From the sequence record PV588651.1: a stretch of DNA of 15,773 nucleotides, one strand, 5' to 3'. Position numbers and translations under genes: made by a program. Under the pieces are notes generated by a model. The model saw only the letters and a program-made list of their open reading frames with translations, was not told where the DNA came from and did not search any database. The stretch's first letter is position 1, and each line of letters begins with the position of its first letter. This DNA is from Klebsiella phage AKM-TASP09. Positions 233 through 4,952 of this stretch are shown piece after piece.

Positions 233-304
233 CACTTTTTGTTAAAACACGATCGTGGTGGCTTGCTATAGTAACCCCATCGAAACGAACAACGGAGCAC
301 CACA
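230..304 (+). promoter_or_regulatory. Cassette-boundary element copy A: TAG-CACTTTTTGTTAAAAC (230-248), imperfect inverted repeat around TGcTATAGT (-10-like, 267-272), leader ...CGAAACGAACAACGGAG, ATG 305
   Basis: Seen directly. TTGTTA is at 239-244 and TATAGT at 267-272, a 22-bp spacer. TG is at 264-265 (extended -10). GGAG is at 294-297, 7 nt before the ATG. Confidence 0.7.
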
Positions 305-799
305 ATGAAATCTCGCGAATACCTCAACACCCTTAATGGCTTGATTTACTGGCTGGAAGGTGGCGAAGTGATGATGCACAAGCGCGAAGGAACAAAAGTA
401 ATGCGGTCGACAATGACGGCAGCAATCTTCTTCGAAAAGGTCGGCAACGATACGCTGATTCTGGTTGAGCCGGAGCCGGAGCAAAAGAGCATGACCATGA
501 ACGAATTCTCTAACTTCCTGGCTGGCATCGACAAAAGCACCACGACTGCAACCGCACAGACGGCCATCCAGGGCGGGGCCACCCACATTGCCATCGACGG
601 TAACGGCGACGTCTTCGCATTCAAGATGCGCCCGCGCCACTGCCTGCCGAAAGATGATGACGCAAATGATTACCTGGGCGAATGGCTTCGCGGGTCGGAG
701 CAGTACGGCCACATTGCGCGAACAGTCTGCTTCCTGGGCAACACTGGCCGCGAGCACCGCAACTGGCGGGAACTCTGCTTCCAGATCCCACAGCAATAG
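305..799 (+). CDS. hypothetical protein (164 aa), sole gene of cassette A
   Basis: GGAG sits 7 nt upstream. ORF of 164 aa ends with TAG 797-799, which is embedded in the next boundary motif. No recognisable domain. Confidence 0.7.
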   Translation: MKSREYLNTLNGLIYWLEGGEVMMHKREGTKVMRSTMTAAIFFEKVGNDTLILVEPEPEQKSMTMNEFSNFLAGIDKSTTTATAQTAIQGGATHIAIDGNGDVFAFKMRPRHCLPKDDDANDYLGEWLRGSEQYGHIARTVCFLGNTGREHRNWRELCFQIPQQ

Positions 800-867
800 C
801 ACTTTTTGTTAAAACGCAATCGGGGTGATGCGCTATCATTACCCCATCGAAACAGAGGAGCATAAAC
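797..867 (+). promoter_or_regulatory. Cassette-boundary element copy B: TAG-CACTTTTTGTTAAAAC (797-815), inverted repeat GGGGT(822-826)/ACCCC(841-845) flanking TATCAT (834-839), leader ACCCCATCGAAACAGAGGAG
   Basis: TTGTTA at 806-811 and TATCAT at 834-839, a 22-bp spacer. The 5-bp inverted repeat encloses the -10-like hexamer. GAGGAG at 855-860, ATG at 868. Confidence 0.7.
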
Positions 868-1080
868 ATGATCGGCAACCATAACAACCCACTCAATTCA
901 GCATTTCACCGTCGCGCGGTAGAGCAACACTTCCACGCGCTGAAGGTGGTTTGCAACGAGATGAATCTTATGCTTGACCTGCCGTCATGGGATGCGCAAC
1001 TGGAAGATTACTATGATGGCCTGCGCGCTAAACGGGATGGCATTATTACCCGCCTGCGCCTGGCTGGTATGTTCTTATAG
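868..1080 (+). CDS. hypothetical protein (70 aa)
   Basis: GAGGAG lies 7 nt upstream and the gene ends in TAG. It is the first gene of cassette B. Confidence 0.65.
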   Translation: MIGNHNNPLNSAFHRRAVEQHFHALKVVCNEMNLMLDLPSWDAQLEDYYDGLRAKRDGIITRLRLAGMFL

Positions 1081-1091
1081 GAGAAACAAAA

Positions 1092-1352
1092 ATGCAACAA
1101 TTCGAATCTCGCGGCAAGACCTACAACCTGCCAGACACCGCTACCCACGCCGCACCTGGTGCATGCGTCGGCTTGTACTTTAAGGATGGCGATAGCTGGT
1201 ACTTCATGGGTGATGTGATTGGGGATGTAACGGTAACGCCGAAGAAATGCGGATTACTCCTGGGCTTTTACGATCACGACGTGGTGGAGTTGAAGCCAAA
1301 GCGCGTACCGTTCGCCTTCTGGAATAAAATCAAAGGGGCGCTGTTCAAATGA
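1092..1352 (+). CDS. hypothetical protein (86 aa)
   Basis: AGGAG at 1079-1083 overlaps the upstream stop, 8 nt before ATG 1092. Confidence 0.65.
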   Translation: MQQFESRGKTYNLPDTATHAAPGACVGLYFKDGDSWYFMGDVIGDVTVTPKKCGLLLGFYDHDVVELKPKRVPFAFWNKIKGALFK

Positions 1353-1567
1353 GCGACCCGAAACTGCAAACGGTATGCTACCGCGATTCGGATGGCGATG
1401 AATTGGTCGTGTCGCCGTTCAGTGGTGGTTCTGCTGGCGTAGAGCTTATGGCGACCCACGATAGCGGTTGCTGCGTATTTGACGACCCGAAGGTAATCCG
1501 CGATCTGGCTAACCAGTTGCTGTCCGTCGCCGATGCCGTAGAGAGCGCACAAGGAGCGGAAAAATGA
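1349..1567 (+). CDS. hypothetical protein (72 aa), Cys-rich
   Basis: ATGA start/stop overlap with the upstream gene suggests translational coupling. Reads as a protein-like ORF. Confidence 0.55.
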   Translation: MSDPKLQTVCYRDSDGDELVVSPFSGGSAGVELMATHDSGCCVFDDPKVIRDLANQLLSVADAVESAQGAEK

Positions 1568-3258: not shown

Positions 3259-3434
3259 GCAAGAAAATGATTGCGCTGTATTGGGTTCTTTTCCTGGGTG
3301 GCCTGGTGGTCGCCAAAGAAGATGGCTGGCAAATGATCGGAATGATGATGGTTATCATCGGGGTAAGCCGCCTCTCTGAGATTAACGGCTTCCGCCGTGG
3401 TCGCCGGGCCGCATTCACTGGCGACAAAGAATAG
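3255..3434 (+). CDS. small hydrophobic (2-TM-like) protein, 59 aa, absent from the ORF track
   Basis: Strong GAGGTGA RBS lies 5 nt upstream and an ATGA overlap links it to the upstream gene. Translation MSKKMIALYWVLFLGGLVVAKEDGWQMIGMMMVIIGVSRLSEINGFRRGRRAAFTGDKE has two hydrophobic segments. Ends in TAG 3432-3434 inside boundary copy E. Confidence 0.6.
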   Translation: MSKKMIALYWVLFLGGLVVAKEDGWQMIGMMMVIIGVSRLSEINGFRRGRRAAFTGDKE

Positions 3435-3514
3435 CACTTTTTGTTAAACCTGCCGTAACGTCATTTGGTAAAGTGGCGTTACTGAAGCGAAACAAACCAA
3501 TCAGGAGTTACACC
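3432..3514 (+). promoter_or_regulatory. Cassette-boundary element copy E: TAG-CACTTTTTGTTAAAC, inverted repeat GTAACG(3455-3460)/CGTTAC(3477-3482) flanking TGgTAAAGT (3469-3474), leader GAAGCGAAACAAACCAATCAGGAG
   Basis: TTGTTA at 3441-3446 and TAAAGT at 3469-3474, a 22-bp spacer. TG at 3466-3467. The 6-bp inverted repeat has a 16-nt loop. Confidence 0.7.
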
Positions 3515-3724
3515 ATGAATGACCACATTATCGACCTGTTAAGCATGCTGGCTGAGGATACCGTAGCCGTCATCGAGCTTGAGGACGGAACCGAACTTCA
3601 GATCGAGGTTCCCAGCGTGCGATTCTGCGTATCCGGCGGCGAGCATTCCGAGCGCTCAACCGAAACGGATCTTGACTACGCGACCCACTTACTATGCCTG
3701 AACGCGATCGAGGAGATCCGCTAA
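3515..3724 (+). CDS. hypothetical acidic protein (69 aa; the ORF-track start 3473 lies inside the boundary element)
   Basis: CAGGAG lies 8 nt upstream of ATG 3515. The leader is homologous to that of cassette G. Confidence 0.6.
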   Translation: MNDHIIDLLSMLAEDTVAVIELEDGTELQIEVPSVRFCVSGGEHSERSTETDLDYATHLLCLNAIEEIR

Positions 3725-4158
3725 TGAACACAATCAAACTGAAATGCGTGTCAGTCGAGTCGCTCGTTAGCATCTCCTGTAAGCCTGGCGATATCATCAC
3801 TGCCAGCCGGGATAACGAATTCTCATGCTGGCACTTCGACGGATACTACCTGGATGATGATCTGGTGGTTCGCGGCATATTCGGTGAGTTCGCGCGGTTC
3901 GAGGTAGCGAAGCGCAAGACCGATCGCAAACTGGTGGTTCGCGCAATGTGCATCATCGCCCGCCAGTATGGATGGACTGACGCAGGAGTTAAGCGCGTCG
4001 GCAACTACAAAACCGTCAAGGAGTGGGCGCGGGATTGGGCCGCATTCTACACCGACGAAAAAGGCGAGCTTCAGCACGATATCAGCGAGTACCTGGAGGA
4101 TTACAGTCGTGGCGATGCCGTCCGCGAGTTCATGCAGGCAGAAATCGACGCCCTATAG
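3724..4158 (+). CDS. hypothetical protein (144 aa)
   Basis: TAATG overlap with the upstream gene and GAGGAG 9 nt upstream. The ORF-track start 3694 would overlap the upstream gene. Ends in TAG 4156-4158 inside boundary copy F. Confidence 0.65.
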   Translation: MNTIKLKCVSVESLVSISCKPGDIITASRDNEFSCWHFDGYYLDDDLVVRGIFGEFARFEVAKRKTDRKLVVRAMCIIARQYGWTDAGVKRVGNYKTVKEWARDWAAFYTDEKGELQHDISEYLEDYSRGDAVREFMQAEIDAL

Positions 4159-4229
4159 CACTTTTTGTTAAAACAACCTTCCGGGCCTGCGGTATAGTAG
4201 GCCCACACCAACCAAATGAGGATACTAAA
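4156..4229 (+). promoter_or_regulatory. Cassette-boundary element copy F: TAG-CACTTTTTGTTAAAAC, inverted repeat GGGCCT(4183-4188)/AGGCCC(4199-4204) flanking TATAGT (4193-4198), leader CACACCAACCAAATGAGGA
   Basis: TTGTTA at 4165-4170 and TATAGT at 4193-4198, a 22-bp spacer. The 6-bp inverted repeat has a 10-nt loop. Confidence 0.7.
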
Positions 4230-4874
4230 ATGCTGACCATTAAAACCATTGCTTTCCCGGCACGCTTCTACACCAATCCCGATAATCGTGGCGAGTTCAT
4301 CGACTACAAAGACGACAATTCAAAAGGCAAGTGGTTCGATGGCGGTGAAAGCAATATCCCGCTGGGCTACTTCATTTGCAAGCATAACGTATTCAACAAG
4401 GGCAACGTCCCGGAGCGACCTTACCAGTATGCTACTCTCATGGGATCGGCTATTGCATGCCCAACAATCAAGCAGGCTCTGGACTACGCAGTGGAAACTG
4501 CTCACAACATGTTCGGTCGGAACGAGTCTCGCGGGATTGTGAATCGCGCCATCGTCCACGGCTACGGCGAGCCGCAGGAGTTGAGAATCCTTCCCGGCGA
4601 AATCAAAGCGACCAAGATTAAGGCTGGCGGATTCGAAGTGCGCCGCGACGGCAGTGTGCTGATTAACGATGCTGTCATTCGCGGGGAGGTTTACGCAACT
4701 ACCTTCAAGGAGAAAGATCGTATCAAAGAGCTTGAGGAGCAGGTTGATTTCCTGACTGGTCAACTCGAAGCGGTATCAAAAGCCATGAGAAGCAACGGTG
4801 AAAACGTCGTCACTCACGCCAAGGTGTTGCGTCAAATGGCCGACGCACTGGTTAATATCTGGCGCGGCGAATAA
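4230..4874 (+). CDS. hypothetical protein (214 aa) with a C-terminal coiled-coil-like segment; sole gene of cassette F
   Basis: ATG 4230 is preceded by GAGGA 8 nt upstream. The ORF-track start 4023 would run through the boundary element and the upstream gene. Ends TAA, followed immediately by the TAG of boundary copy G. Confidence 0.65.
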   Translation: MLTIKTIAFPARFYTNPDNRGEFIDYKDDNSKGKWFDGGESNIPLGYFICKHNVFNKGNVPERPYQYATLMGSAIACPTIKQALDYAVETAHNMFGRNESRGIVNRAIVHGYGEPQELRILPGEIKATKIKAGGFEVRRDGSVLINDAVIRGEVYATTFKEKDRIKELEEQVDFLTGQLEAVSKAMRSNGENVVTHAKVLRQMADALVNIWRGE

Positions 4875-4952
4875 TAGCACGAATTGCTAAACCTTCCGCA
4901 AGGGCATTTGATATAGTGCCCTTATTGAAGCAACCAATCAGGAGATAACGAA
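4872..4952 (+). promoter_or_regulatory. Cassette-boundary element copy G: TAA-TAG-CACGAATTGCTAAAC, inverted repeat AGGGCA(4901-4906)/TGCCCT(4917-4922) flanking TGaTATAGT (4912-4917), leader GAAGCAACCAATCAGGAG
   Basis: TTGCTA at 4884-4889 and TATAGT at 4912-4917, a 22-bp spacer. TG at 4909-4910. The 6-bp inverted repeat has a 10-nt loop. Confidence 0.7.

Follow-up and report, generated by a model that had tools for sequence, protein, structure and literature searches.

A 21-nt repeat, aaATAGCACnnnTTGnTAAAA, has previously been published for the phages TLS, T1 and Rtp (PMC11447400). Neither a phage RNA polymerase nor a phage sigma factor was found in the annotations of T1, TLS, Rtp and a Webervirus (Alina), and the TLS authors likewise report none (PMC11447400). 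No published transcription start, termination or binding data were found for any member of the Drexlerviridae, and the +1 positions given below were derived from the sequence only. The DNA analysed here (the window, 15,773 nucleotides; PV588651.1) comes from a Klebsiella Webervirus (Drexlerviridae, T1-like) and is 91-95% identical to Klebsiella Weberviruses. The 15-mer GCACnnnTTGnTAAA was present in seven copies on the + strand within 4.7 kb, which is not a chance recurrence. An earlier, sequence-only reading had described these repeats as a TTGNTA hexamer placed 22 bp ahead of a -10. All seven pairs were confirmed at the stated coordinates, separated by 22 bp without exception, but TTGNTA did not hold up as a separate hexamer and instead forms the proximal half of the conserved, already published 21-nt element. 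All seven repeats represent one type of intergenic cassette common to all T1-like phages, and these cassettes are most likely the main early promoters of the phage, overlooked by ordinary promoter searches. Each unit also holds a hairpin; in class A (6/7 window units) its end lies at about -1, and in class B (unit 4) at the -10. The seven units are as follows.

Unit 1, 227-307, + strand: class A hairpin; element 227-247, AAATAGCACTTTTTGTTAAAA; TAG 230-232; TTGTTA 239; TGc 264-266; -10 TATAGT 267-272; predicted +1 A 279; imperfect hairpin 253-283 (-9.9 kcal/mol, z -1.5); Shine-Dalgarno GGAG; ATG 305.
Unit 2, 794-870, + strand: class A hairpin; element 794-814; TAG 797-799, the stop of ORF 305-799; TTGTTA 806; G-14 at 832; -10 TATCAT 834-839; predicted +1 A 846; hairpin 822-845, GGGGUGAUG/CAUUACCCC, one G.U pair (-14.2 kcal/mol, z -3.0); ATG 868.
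Unit 3, 1955-2033, + strand: class A, 'GAA' variant, perfect palindrome TAGCAcgaatTGCTA; element 1955-1975; TAG 1958-1960, the stop of the upstream ORF; TTGCTA 1967; TGg 1992-1994; -10 TATAGT 1995-2000; predicted +1 A 2007; hairpin 1983-2006, GGGGUA/UACCCC (-11.4 kcal/mol); ATG 2031.
Unit 4, 2555-2632, + strand: class B, hairpin entirely inside the spacer; element 2555-2575; TAG 2558-2560, the stop of ORF 2243-2560; TTGGTA 2567; G-14 at 2593; -10 CATAAT 2595-2600; predicted +1 A 2607; hairpin 2576-2595, CCCGGCC..GAUCGGG, ending at the -10 (-10.6 kcal/mol); ATG 2630.
Unit 5, 3429-3517, + strand: class A hairpin; element 3429-3449; TAG 3432-3434, the stop of ORF 3255-3434; TTGTTA 3441; TGg 3466-3468; -10 TAAAGT 3469-3474; predicted +1 A 3481; hairpin 3455-3482, 12 bp, GUAACGUCAUUU/AAGUGGCGUUAC (-15.3 kcal/mol, z -4.3; 0/200 shuffles as stable); ATG 3515.
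Unit 6, 4153-4232, + strand: class A hairpin; element 4153-4173; TAG 4156-4158, the stop of ORF 3694/3724-4158; TTGTTA 4165; G-14 at 4191; -10 TATAGT 4193-4198; predicted +1 A 4205; hairpin 4183-4204, GGGCCUGC/GUAGGCCC (-17.3 kcal/mol, z -3.4; 0/200 shuffles as stable); ATG 4230.
Unit 7, 4872-4955, + strand: class A, 'GAA' variant; element 4872-4892; upstream ORF stop TAA 4872-4874, abutting the TAG at 4875; TTGCTA 4884; TGa 4909-4911; -10 TATAGT 4912-4917; predicted +1 A 4924; hairpin 4900-4923, AAGGGCAUU/AGUGCCCUU (-12.9 kcal/mol, z -3.1); ATG 4953.

The leader AACCAATCAGGAG was present in both unit 5 and unit 7. Homology breakpoints between Weberviruses coincided with unit borders, at 286, 795, 2556, 2604, 3522, 4222 and 4873; on this descriptive evidence the conserved units may double as crossover points for the exchange of gene cassettes.

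Spacing was conserved well beyond the window. Among 545 distinct units drawn from about 120 Drexlerviridae genomes or loci, 464 kept the 22-bp gap; it was one base shorter (21 bp) in 61 and one base longer (23 bp) in 20. A smaller set, 76 units taken from TLS, T1, Rtp, a Webervirus and the window (five genomes), had 22 bp in 68, 23 bp in five and 21 bp in three. Spacers could not be aligned between units and yet their length was kept, so shared descent alone does not account for it. In the 76-unit set G was found at -14 in 64 units (84%) and TG in 39. Position -1 was C in 63%, and position +1, exactly 7 nt after the hexamer, was A in 86%; the ATG lay about 31 nt past the -10. All seven window units had G at -14 and A as the seventh base after the hexamer, and TG at -15/-14 was confirmed in the four copies claimed earlier (units 1, 3, 5 and 7). 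The invariance of A-11 and T-7 in the logo was partly forced by the score threshold for calling a -10. The view that TTGNTA at 22 bp is no sigma-70 -35 was borne out. A scan for TTGACA-16..18-TATAAT recovered 0/7 window units, and no -35 was seen at 16-18 bp, the TTGACA match being 2.7 of 6 positions compared to 2.5 for shuffled spacers. Conventional scans of TLS gave only three canonical promoters and those of its relatives 5-10, a gap that the approximately 20 units per genome therefore fill. Where no co-directional gene lies upstream, as for the helicase units and the leftmost units, element, spacing and -10 were retained, which argues for a role at the DNA rather than the RNA level. These statistics fit a sigma-70 extended -10 promoter in which the -35 would be replaced by an element centred near -42. 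An eighth unit had been proposed at 5803-5808/5831-5836. It lacks TAGCAC and is not a member; in 36 related phages its TTG hexamer reads TTCGTA or ATCGAA and its -10-like hexamer mostly GATTCT or CATTCT.

An inverted repeat was found around the -10 of each unit, forming a compensated hairpin of unit-specific sequence in the 22-bp spacer and the discriminator, which had gone unnoticed in the sequence-only reading. Mean MFE was -11.2 kcal/mol for units and -5.4 kcal/mol for random genomic 38-mers, and 68% of units but 7.7% of the 38-mers reached -10 kcal/mol or below. For 48 non-redundant class A units the MFE was -14.0 with their own arms and -5.6 after the 3' arm was swapped between units. A compensatory pathway was observed from GGGGTA/TACCCC through GGGGTA/TATCCC (G.U) to GGGATA/TATCCC. 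The hairpin is under selection on the sense strand: the fold z was -2.66 on the sense and -1.52 on the antisense strand (p = 3.5e-11; base composition neutral), an asymmetry that is no strict proof of an RNA role, as G.T pairs are tolerated in single-stranded DNA too. The hairpin was missing from 7/8 operon-first units (those with no upstream co-directional gene) and from 10/68 others (Fisher p = 6e-5, with classes assigned after the data were seen), and for this reason it most likely works as RNA, on transcripts arriving from upstream. Most class A hairpins, those of the window included, were followed by U-poor sequence (0-1 T in the next 8 nt in 35/48) and are thus not classical intrinsic terminators.

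We give about an even chance to the unit being a compact intergenic expression cassette typical of the Drexlerviridae, made up of a sigma-70 promoter and an upstream-acting RNA hairpin. Its proposed layout begins with the stop codon that ends the upstream gene and continues with the 21-bp aaATAGCACnnnTTGnTAAAA, a spacer setting the -10 at 22 (+/-1) bp, an extended -10 (G-14, TAtAgT), six bases and the +1 A; a leader of about 25 nt, rich in A and C and carrying a Shine-Dalgarno sequence, then runs to the ATG. Judging from the sequence statistics, host sigma-70 RNA polymerase would start at the conserved A by way of the extended -10. The element would stand in for the -35, with its palindrome centred at about -42, and the fixed spacer length would keep it on one helix face beside the polymerase. 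Candidate host readers are the alpha C-terminal domain and/or sigma region 4, or a host DNA-binding protein. Since the hairpin ends at about -1 or at the -10, it would be absent from the unit's own transcript and occur only in RNA from upstream, where it most likely serves as a 3'-end stabiliser or attenuator insulating neighbouring cassettes.

At the core of the element is an imperfect 15-bp palindrome, TAGCA-N5-TGnTA (centre at about -42 in our numbering), which is perfect in units 3 and 7. A further copy of the element was found in reverse orientation.

12981-13008, + strand: canonical promoter of the major capsid gene; TTGACC 12981-12986; TGc and TATTCT 13003-13008; ATG 13048.
12984-13004, minus strand: reverse-oriented copy of the 21-nt element, filling the 16-bp promoter spacer GTTTAGCGATTCGTGC.

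The same arrangement was found in T1, TLS and Alina. This copy was rejected as a unit, its own strand having no -10 at 22 bp, and still belongs to the same element family. Reverse copies in late promoters point to an independent DNA-binding protein as the reader, and less to the polymerase. Complete units were also found in the T4-like phages KP15, Xman and EBPL, and at an orthologous locus on IncI plasmids of E. coli, Mixta, Leclercia and Scandinavium the spacer sequence varied, but element, TGcTATAGT and a spacing of 23 bp were kept.

In another reading the 21-bp element would be the operator of the conserved Cro-like HTH protein of the Drexlerviridae (T1 gp23, TLS gp57, Rtp52, Alina gp30). 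This protein, whose gene is served by one of the few canonical promoters, would act at -42 as a class II-type activator of about 20 units. At its own gene and at the promoters for capsid and tail fibre, where the element is found in the 5'UTR or in the spacer, it would have a repressing or tuning effect. The palindromic core and the reverse copies in the capsid promoter spacer of T1, TLS and a Webervirus agree with this. The regulator is a core gene with a P22-Cro-like HTH and 53-64% identity between genera, and has a canonical promoter in all four (TTGAAT-17-TATAAT, TTGACT-17-TATCAT, TTGTCA-16-TATAAT, TTGTCT-17-TACAAT); P57 is among only three canonical promoters listed for TLS. The element of the helicase unit sits 12-14 bp ahead of the regulator ATG, although a 90-bp divergent intergenic region explains this too. 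However, the predicted recognition helix varies by genus (SIQVVQQW, SNQTVQGW, TPQAVEEW, NLKTVWGW) while the DNA element is invariant, and an activator requirement would hold back most early genes in phages with a very short latent period. The regulator was found only in 44-53 kb Drexlerviridae records, and the T4-like phages and IncI plasmids keep complete units without a homologue. The Cro-like operator is therefore considered rather unlikely, and the reader is most likely host-encoded, even if the T4-like phage and plasmid copies could be recent transfers working merely as extended -10 promoters. Among host regulators Lrp, or another host transcription factor tying early transcription to host physiology, appears improbable. 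The E. coli Lrp consensus, yAGhAwATTwTdCTr (quoted in PMC5554404), matched TAGCAcnnnTTGCTA at 12-13 of 15 positions in one register in 463/545 units (chance per position 6e-4 for at least 12 matches and 6.6e-5 for at least 13), a match spotted after the fact among many motifs; the invariant C at position 6 is at odds with the consensus. The element is invariant in phages and plasmids of Enterobacteriaceae, but no complete unit was found in representative E. coli, Klebsiella and Salmonella chromosomes, and Lrp usually binds arrays of far-upstream sites and not a single site at -42. Reading by a phage-encoded or phage-modified polymerase or sigma factor, also raised earlier, is hardly credible: the non-canonical geometry and a faint Sigma70_r4_2 similarity in the regulator HTH (E = 0.096) are set against textbook sigma-70 features (-10, G-14, +1), units in plasmids and T4-like phages, and the lack of an annotated RNA polymerase or sigma gene in T1, TLS, Rtp and Alina, on which the TLS authors agree.

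The hairpin invites two other explanations. The whole unit could be an RNA signal for processing, termination or stability in polycistronic transcripts, its '-10' being an A/U-rich loop or tail and no promoter. Sense-strand selection is in line with this, RNase E sites resemble a U-rich single strand followed by a hairpin, and some units are true terminators (e.g. T1 35930-35971, an annotated terminator). Operon-first units, with no upstream transcript, nevertheless drop the hairpin and keep element, 22-bp spacing and -10; G-14 and A+1 stand where a promoter predicts; the hairpin shifts between classes A and B while the -10 is fixed relative to the element; and the genomes would be nearly promoterless if the units were discounted. 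We find this reading implausible. Equally doubtful is an inverted repeat acting in DNA, either as a cruciform or non-template hairpin that pre-melts or masks the -10 under supercoiling-dependent control, or as a promoter used in single-stranded DNA, like those of plasmid leading regions and the early promoters of phage N4. The arms do lie on both sides of the -10, DNA hairpins also tolerate G.T pairs, and the unusual sensitivity of Drexlerviridae to DNA intercalators is circumstantially in agreement. A symmetric cruciform, however, predicts no strand asymmetry, and the sense strand is clearly favoured. Stems of 8-12 bp covering half of the -10 would occlude rather than present it, and the -10 lies outside class B hairpins altogether. 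The related IncI unit is in an intergenic region with long-range self-complementarity, but its fold was not significant (z -0.56), and the annotations of T1, TLS, Rtp and a Webervirus contain no gene for a virion RNA polymerase.

The sigma-70 cassette with an upstream-acting hairpin has its closest analogues in PeSL cassettes and promoter-coupled terminators. Its element is centred at about -42, where the proximal UP subsite lies and where class II activators bind, e.g. CRP at galP1. The earlier suggestion of a UP-like element with an extended -10 was right as far as the position and the real-looking extended -10 promoters are concerned. A pure UP element fails for the reverse-oriented copies inside late promoters, which have no -10 at 22 bp, and the 21-nt element is more strongly conserved than an A/T-rich UP element would require. 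We know of no host factor recognising such a site. With its G/C positions invariant (TAGCAC, TTG and TAAA are the invariant parts), the element holds about 26 bits of information, far above known UP elements.

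The geometry claimed in the sequence-only reading was exact. A TTG(T/C/G)TA hexamer is followed at 22 bp by a -10-like hexamer (TATAGT, TATCAT, CATAAT or TAAAGT) in all seven units, all on the + strand between 230 and 4955, and the TTGNTA-22-(-10) arrangement is thereby confirmed. The seven units matched TAGCACnnnTTGnTAAA with 0 mismatches (7/7). All are intergenic and flanked by + strand ORFs; they start at or adjoining the stop codon of the upstream ORF and end at an ATG with a Shine-Dalgarno sequence, 71-83 nt downstream. TG at -15/-14, claimed for four copies, was present in 4/7 units. 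Alignment of the units on the hexamer revealed a G at -14 in 7/7, and the seventh base after the hexamer was an A, also in 7/7. At 22 bp from the -10, TTGNTA is outside the sigma-70 -35 range, as had been proposed. A canonical -35 (TTGACA-like, at 16-18 and at most 19 bp from the -10) was absent in the window units; the best TTGACA match at 16-18 bp scored 2.7/6, compared to 2.5/6 in shuffled spacers, and a standard sigma-70 promoter scan of the window detected 0/7 units. The sigma-70 extended -10, TGn or at least G-14 before TAnnnT, was found in the window units. A -10 placed at 17 bp from TTGNTA was rejected, as the hexamer there is ATTTGG-like.

An eighth candidate, proposed at 5803-5836, was discarded because 36 related phages do not preserve its TTGTAT and GATTAT. 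Window 5819-5845, between a pyrophosphohydrolase-like gene and ORF 5867, contains a stem-loop, GCGCCUGU...GCGGGCGC (-14 kcal/mol, z -2.7), preceded by an A-tract and followed by AAATTT, that is conserved across 36 related phages. ORF 5222-5797 has a dATP/dGTP pyrophosphohydrolase domain (PF04447, E = 3e-31), and ORF 6902-7507 is the small terminase (GP3_package). The window shares 91-95% identity with many Klebsiella Weberviruses (Drexlerviridae, T1-like), and it holds a small-gene block upstream of terminase, portal and head genes.

The TTGNTA hexamer lies inside a longer string, a 21-nt element with the consensus aaATAGCACnnnTTGnTAAAA. This string was described, as a 21-nt direct repeat, in a re-annotation of phage TLS (Phage 2024, PMC11447400), whose genome contains 18 intergenic copies. 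They run in the direction of transcription, some 76 nt ahead of the start codons, and fall into the subgroups TTT, GAA and AAA; T1, Rtp and Rogue1 also have the repeat. The window units have the same sequence, orientation and subgroups, are likewise intergenic and about 76 nt upstream of an ATG, with a TAG-to-ATG distance of 71-83 nt, and lie in the genome of a T1-like phage. Judged by these features, they are members of the published Drexlerviridae repeat family. The re-annotation leaves the function of the repeat as a question, naming a stoperator, an enhancer site or an UP element, and its text and Table S1 give only 21-mers and three canonical promoters (PMC11447400). It treats the repeat alone; text and table make no mention of a -10 at a constant distance of 22 bp, a conserved +1 or a hairpin. 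In other papers on T1-like genomes, no more than 5-10 promoters were predicted.

TLS, T1, Rtp, a Webervirus and the window were scanned, giving 76 units with a -10-like hexamer. The spacing was 22 bp in 68 units, 23 bp in five and 21 bp in three. In 545 distinct units from 120 related loci it was 22 bp in 464, 21 bp in 61 and 23 bp in 20. Spacers could not be aligned between units, so it is the length of the spacer that is kept and not its sequence. Among the 76 units, TATAGT was the commonest hexamer, G at -14 was present in 84% and TG at -15/-14 in 51%; the apparent invariance of A-11 and T-7 is partly due to the minimum -10 score that was required. Six bases past the hexamer there is a C (63%) followed by an A (86%), an indirect sign of a start site, which sigma-70 extended -10 promoters place 6-8 nt after the hexamer, and the distance from hexamer to ATG is about 31 nt. 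The conserved A is the inferred +1; no published transcription start-site mapping for Drexlerviridae was found. Numbered from it, the element spans -51 to -32, with an A/T-tract at -43 to -39. The core is a 15-bp imperfect palindrome, TAGCA-N5-TGnTA, centered around -42 and perfect in window units 3 and 7, and TAGCAC and G-38 are invariant in the 76-unit logo. Both proximal UP subsites and class II activators are found around -42, e.g. CRP at galP1, which is itself an extended -10 promoter. The statistics of element, spacing, -10 and +1 point to a promoter composed of an upstream box and an extended -10, with predicted start sites. Two leader motifs, CATCGAAACGAAAC and AACCAATCAGGAG, were observed at window 3497-3509 and 4936-4947. 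Both recur after the +1, in every genus and also in the T4-like copies (units of T1, TLS, Webervirus and KP15), and may be a shared translation-initiation context.

A hairpin, overlooked in the sequence-only reading, was found in the spacer and discriminator of the window units. In six units (class A; units 1, 2, 3, 5, 6 and 7) spacer and discriminator are complementary, the arm sequences are unit-specific and the helix ends at -1. The hairpin of unit 4 (class B) is entirely inside the spacer and ends at the -10. Folding gave loops of 4-12 nt. The arm pairs were as follows.

Arm pairs of class A hairpins in the window
GGGGUGAUG/CAUUACCCC
GGGGUA/UACCCC
GUAACGUCAUUU/AAGUGGCGUUAC
GGGCCUGC/GUAGGCCC
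AAGGGCAUU/AGUGCCCUU

The segment from -32 to +6 had a mean minimum free energy of -11.2 kcal/mol compared to -5.4 kcal/mol for random genomic 38-mers, and 68% of the units' segments reached -10 kcal/mol or lower against 7.7% of the random ones. Of 109 non-redundant units, 48 were class A, 28 class B and 33 weak. Exchange of the class A 3' arm between units reduced the stability from -14.0 to -5.6 kcal/mol. The sense strand folded better than the antisense strand (z -2.66 vs -1.52, p = 3.5e-11), an asymmetry that composition cannot explain because shuffled sense sequence folds slightly worse than shuffled antisense. The unit hairpins make use of G.U (or G.T) pairs, and related copies form the compensatory series GGGGTA/TACCCC, GGGGTA/TATCCC, GGGATA/TATCCC. 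Stability, unit-specific pairing, strand asymmetry and this series show that the hairpin is under selection. Fixed-register covariation across the 109 units was weak (z = 1.3) because the hairpin registers differ between units, and arm-swap chimeras and the strand comparison were used instead. Per-position conservation among orthologues was set aside as partly circular.

With the helix ending at -1, the hairpin would be absent from the unit's own transcript and present only in RNA reading in from upstream. The hairpin was weak in 7/8 units without an upstream co-directional gene and in 10/68 others (Fisher p = 6e-5, the units having been classified after seeing the data). These eight operon-first units include four helicase units, which diverge from the gene of a Cro-like regulator, and the leftmost units of T1, TLS and Rtp. 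The low frequency of hairpins among them is consistent with a hairpin acting in upstream-derived RNA. They retain element, spacing and -10, which argues that element and -10 act in DNA as a promoter and the hairpin on upstream RNA. A terminator scan of the window detected 0/7 units as intrinsic terminators (G+C-rich hairpin and U-tract). A U-tract was absent after six of the seven window hairpins, whose tails were ATCGAAAC, ATACCAAC or ATTGAAGC, and class A tails in general were U-poor, with 0-1 T in the next 8 nt in 35/48. Class B hairpins adjoin the T-rich -10, and a minority of units, in other genomes, qualify as true terminators. The U-poor tails suggest that the window hairpins are more likely 3'-end stabilisers or attenuators than classical terminators.

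Copies of the element were also found in reverse orientation, without a -10 at 22 bp.

Reverse copy of the element in the window
12984-13004, minus strand: reverse element inside the canonical promoter (12981-13008) of the major capsid gene

The capsid promoter, TTGACC-16-TGcTATTCT, lies 40 nt before the major capsid ATG at 13048. The reverse element fills its 16-bp spacer, and the TGcTAT of the extended -10 comes from the reversed ATAGCAC. T1, TLS and Alina share this arrangement, of which Rtp retains a remnant. In T1 (L002, around 34903) and Rtp (L003, around 33763), an identical reverse copy, CTTAGCAATTCGTGCTATTT, is located just upstream of the tail-fibre gene, after the primase terminator; TLS and Alina lack it at this position. 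A weak match to the element, GCACATATTGCTAAA, with 2-3 mismatches, was seen at 11929-11945 inside ORF 11244-12374. No -10 follows at 21-23 bp and its conservation is that of coding sequence only, so it is probably due to chance.

Complete units were also found outside Drexlerviridae, in the T4-like Straboviridae phages KP15, Xman and EBPL (Slopekvirus and Pseudotevenvirus genomes) and on IncI-type plasmids.

Units outside Drexlerviridae
KP15 (L242), 7063-7150 and 7417-7490: T4-like units
L243 (T4-like locus), around 1500: T4-like unit
L244 (T4-like locus), around 340 and around 1500: T4-like units
E. coli SE11 plasmid pSE11-1 (IncI-gamma/K1; L324), 3560-3690: plasmid locus, unannotated, intergenic; also L260, L287 and L294

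One of the KP15 units is annotated as 'putative middle promoter'. The flanking genes of the T4-like units had no homology to Drexlerviridae genes. Some T4-like phages carry a hybrid form in which the element lies 33 bp from the -10 of a normal PeSL (promoter-early stem-loop) promoter, i.e. 11 bp, one helical turn, further upstream than in the usual units. A shift of one turn fits a factor having to face the polymerase. The plasmid locus consists of ATAGCACTTTTTGCTAAA, 23 bp, TGcTATAGT and then a second promoter-like sequence, TTGACA-17-TAACAT. It occurred on 199 plasmids of E. coli, with further cases in Mixta, Leclercia and Scandinavium; element, 23-bp spacing and TGcTATAGT are kept across these genera and the spacer sequence differs. 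Long-range self-complementarity is visible at the locus, but folding of the region as single-stranded DNA was not significant (z -0.56). A scan of bacterial genomes found no complete unit in representative E. coli, Klebsiella and Salmonella chromosomes, and its matches were otherwise the IncI-plasmid locus, one T1-like contig that is a contaminant and, for the most part, chance similarities in A/T-rich genomes. The contig, NZ_VSMK01000220.1 (46,669 bp; L284/L305; labelled Nitratidesulfovibrio liaohensis), has at least eight typical units in a T1-like layout and most probably represents the genome of a T1-like phage contaminating that assembly. A 49.6-kb Paraclostridium bifermentans 'plasmid', CP124687.1, likewise encodes the Webervirus regulator.

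A candidate reader of the element is a Cro-like helix-turn-helix protein (T1 gp23, TLS gp57, Rtp52, Alina gp30), conserved in all four genera.

Regulator gene regions
T1 (L002), 36432-36524
TLS or Alina (L001), 35833-35920
Rtp (L003), 35282-35382
TLS or Alina (L005), 28221-28310

In every genus the regulator gene has a canonical sigma-70 promoter, one of only three in TLS, on the strand opposite the helicase unit and with its -10 overlapping that of the helicase unit. The 21-nt element is present in the regulator 5'UTR, 12-14 bp before the start codon. This layout, together with the reverse element copies in late promoters, suggests a free-standing DNA-binding protein, and the phage regulator could be that protein. 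There is also evidence against it as the reader. Its predicted recognition helix varies between the genera and the element does not, and complete units are present where the regulator is absent, i.e. in T4-like phages and IncI-type plasmids. No homologue was detected in the T4-like phages carrying units, a search for distant relatives gave only Drexlerviridae matches, and the regulator was confined to 44-53 kb Drexlerviridae records. A Pfam search of 19 window ORFs found no DNA-binding domain. ORF 868-1080 (70 aa; RefSeq 'transcriptional regulator' in related phages, Alina gp65) gave no significant Pfam match.

A host-encoded reader is favoured, which may be either the polymerase itself (alpha C-terminal domain, sigma region 4) or a host protein. 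The E. coli Lrp consensus matches the element at 12-13 of 15 positions, a correspondence spotted in hindsight and taken as no more than a lead. A broader reading, tentative and rather doubtful, is that the units represent a distinct promoter class of enterobacterial RNA polymerase, without a -35 and with a host-read 21-bp element at -42, common to T1-like phages, T4-like phages and IncI plasmids, in which reverse copies switch between early and late transcription. Such a class may include use of the element one helical turn further upstream beside a normal -35. Its reader would be a host component so far unconnected with this sequence, for instance the alpha C-terminal domain acting in a sequence-specific way, or Lrp or a comparable host protein. 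If this is true, the reverse element in the capsid and tail-fibre promoters would be a built-in early/late switch of T1-like phages.

Several known elements resembling the units were rejected. A sigma-54 promoter (TGGCAC-N5-TTGCW) has its GG and GC exactly 10 bp apart and starts 12 nt after the GC. The element reads TAGCAC-N3-TTGC, with an invariant AG for GG and a spacing 2 bp short, and the n of TTGn is a C in only 54% of units. A CCCCAT after the -10 resembles the sigma-32 -10 but is 30 bp from TTGNTA, and the position is wrong for a T4 MotA box (TGCTT at -30). Hairpin promoters of phage N4 have a 5-7 bp stem and a 3-nt loop and are used by a virion RNA polymerase; loops here are 4-12 nt, and no RNA polymerase gene is annotated in T1, TLS, Rtp or Alina. 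An Rfam scan of the whole window at the gathering score gave 0 matches.

Comparison with 37 related phages placed homology breakpoints at the unit borders 286, 795, 2556, 2604, 3522, 4222 and 4873, and also at plain gene borders. Units cover 13% of the sequence and contain 35% of the breakpoints, events that are not phylogenetically independent. Most relatives have a replacement for the gene at 305-799, located between units 1 and 2; in Alina and mfs, an unrelated gene takes the place of the one at 4230-4874, which units 6 and 7 flank. In EBPL, recombination between two units appears to have removed one gene. Gene shuffling at cassettes is a reported behaviour of PeSLs (PMC2839356, PMC4122927).

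T1-like genomes appear nearly promoterless, with only three canonical promoters listed in TLS. If the repeat forms the upstream part of an extended -10 promoter that lacks a -35 and has a fixed 22-bp hairpin spacer, there would be about 20 promoters per genome, with precise predicted start sites, and the failure of promoter predictors on the T1-like family would be explained. The function of the repeat becomes directly testable, in phages that are both common laboratory contaminants and therapy candidates. The same unit is also found in T4-like phages and on IncI plasmids, which suggests that it is a portable regulatory module and moves without its genes. All functional statements on the units rest on sequence statistics.

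PeSL cassettes of the T4-type phages RB49, phi1 and relatives are stop-to-ATG cassettes like the units (PMC2839356, PMC4122927). Both have an upstream A/T-containing region, a sigma-70-type promoter, a stem-loop between box and -10 or overlapping the -10, and a Shine-Dalgarno sequence, and both are concentrated among small genes of no known function. PeSLs are located at the borders of swapped gene cassettes, as the units may be too; the window units show this layout of promoter, stem-loop and Shine-Dalgarno from stop to ATG. PeSLs differ in having a canonical -35 at about 17 bp, e.g. TTGCAA-17-TATATT inside the hairpin, and stem-loops shown to terminate, whereas the units lack a -35 at 16-18 bp, their upstream box is a specific 21-bp element at a distance of 22 bp, and their hairpins mostly have no U-tract. 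A normally spaced -35/-10 pair was present in genuine PeSLs of KP15 and Xman and absent from the window units. Some T4-like phages carry both kinds, plus the hybrid. In promoter-coupled terminators the hairpin DNA is located in the upstream half of the promoter, the T-tract adjoins the -10 and termination occurs some 10 bp ahead of the following start (Fletcher et al., bioRxiv 2026, 10.64898/2026.08.19.745784). Class B units (window unit 4, T1 41957) share this layout. Class A units differ in that the 3' arm follows the -10 without a T-tract, and the 21-bp element has no counterpart in promoter-coupled terminators.

The galP1 promoter is an extended -10 promoter with CRP at -41.5. The units resemble this class II type in TGn and -10, the lack of a usable -35 and a partly palindromic site near -42 over the -35 region. 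Their TAGCA-N5-TGnTA palindrome, centered at -42 from the predicted +1, may correspond to the class II dimer site, which is around -41.5 and replaces the -35, and would be bound by a putative activator. They differ in that the site is only partly palindromic and the positions depend on the predicted +1. UP elements, as in rrnB P1 and T5/T4 early promoters, offer alpha C-terminal domain sites near -42 and -52. The extended -10 features proposed in the sequence-only reading were supported, and the UP-like role it suggested for the A/T-rich sequence has points for and against it. The position fits -59 to -38, the A/T center (TTTTT, GAATT, AAATT) could narrow the minor groove, and the element of the T4-like hybrids is near -53, the position of the distal UP subsite. 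Invariance of TAGCAC and G-38 is not UP-like; unlike in UP elements, the invariant G/C-containing flanks carry far more information, and reverse copies in promoter spacers would be unexpected. The element itself is known. What is new, relative to the papers covered, is that it is coupled at a fixed distance to an extended -10 and a conserved +1, that a compensated hairpin specific to one strand accompanies it, that late promoters contain reverse copies and that it also occurs outside the family. In function, the units would most resemble PeSL cassettes, promoter-coupled terminators and extended -10 promoters with a class II site.
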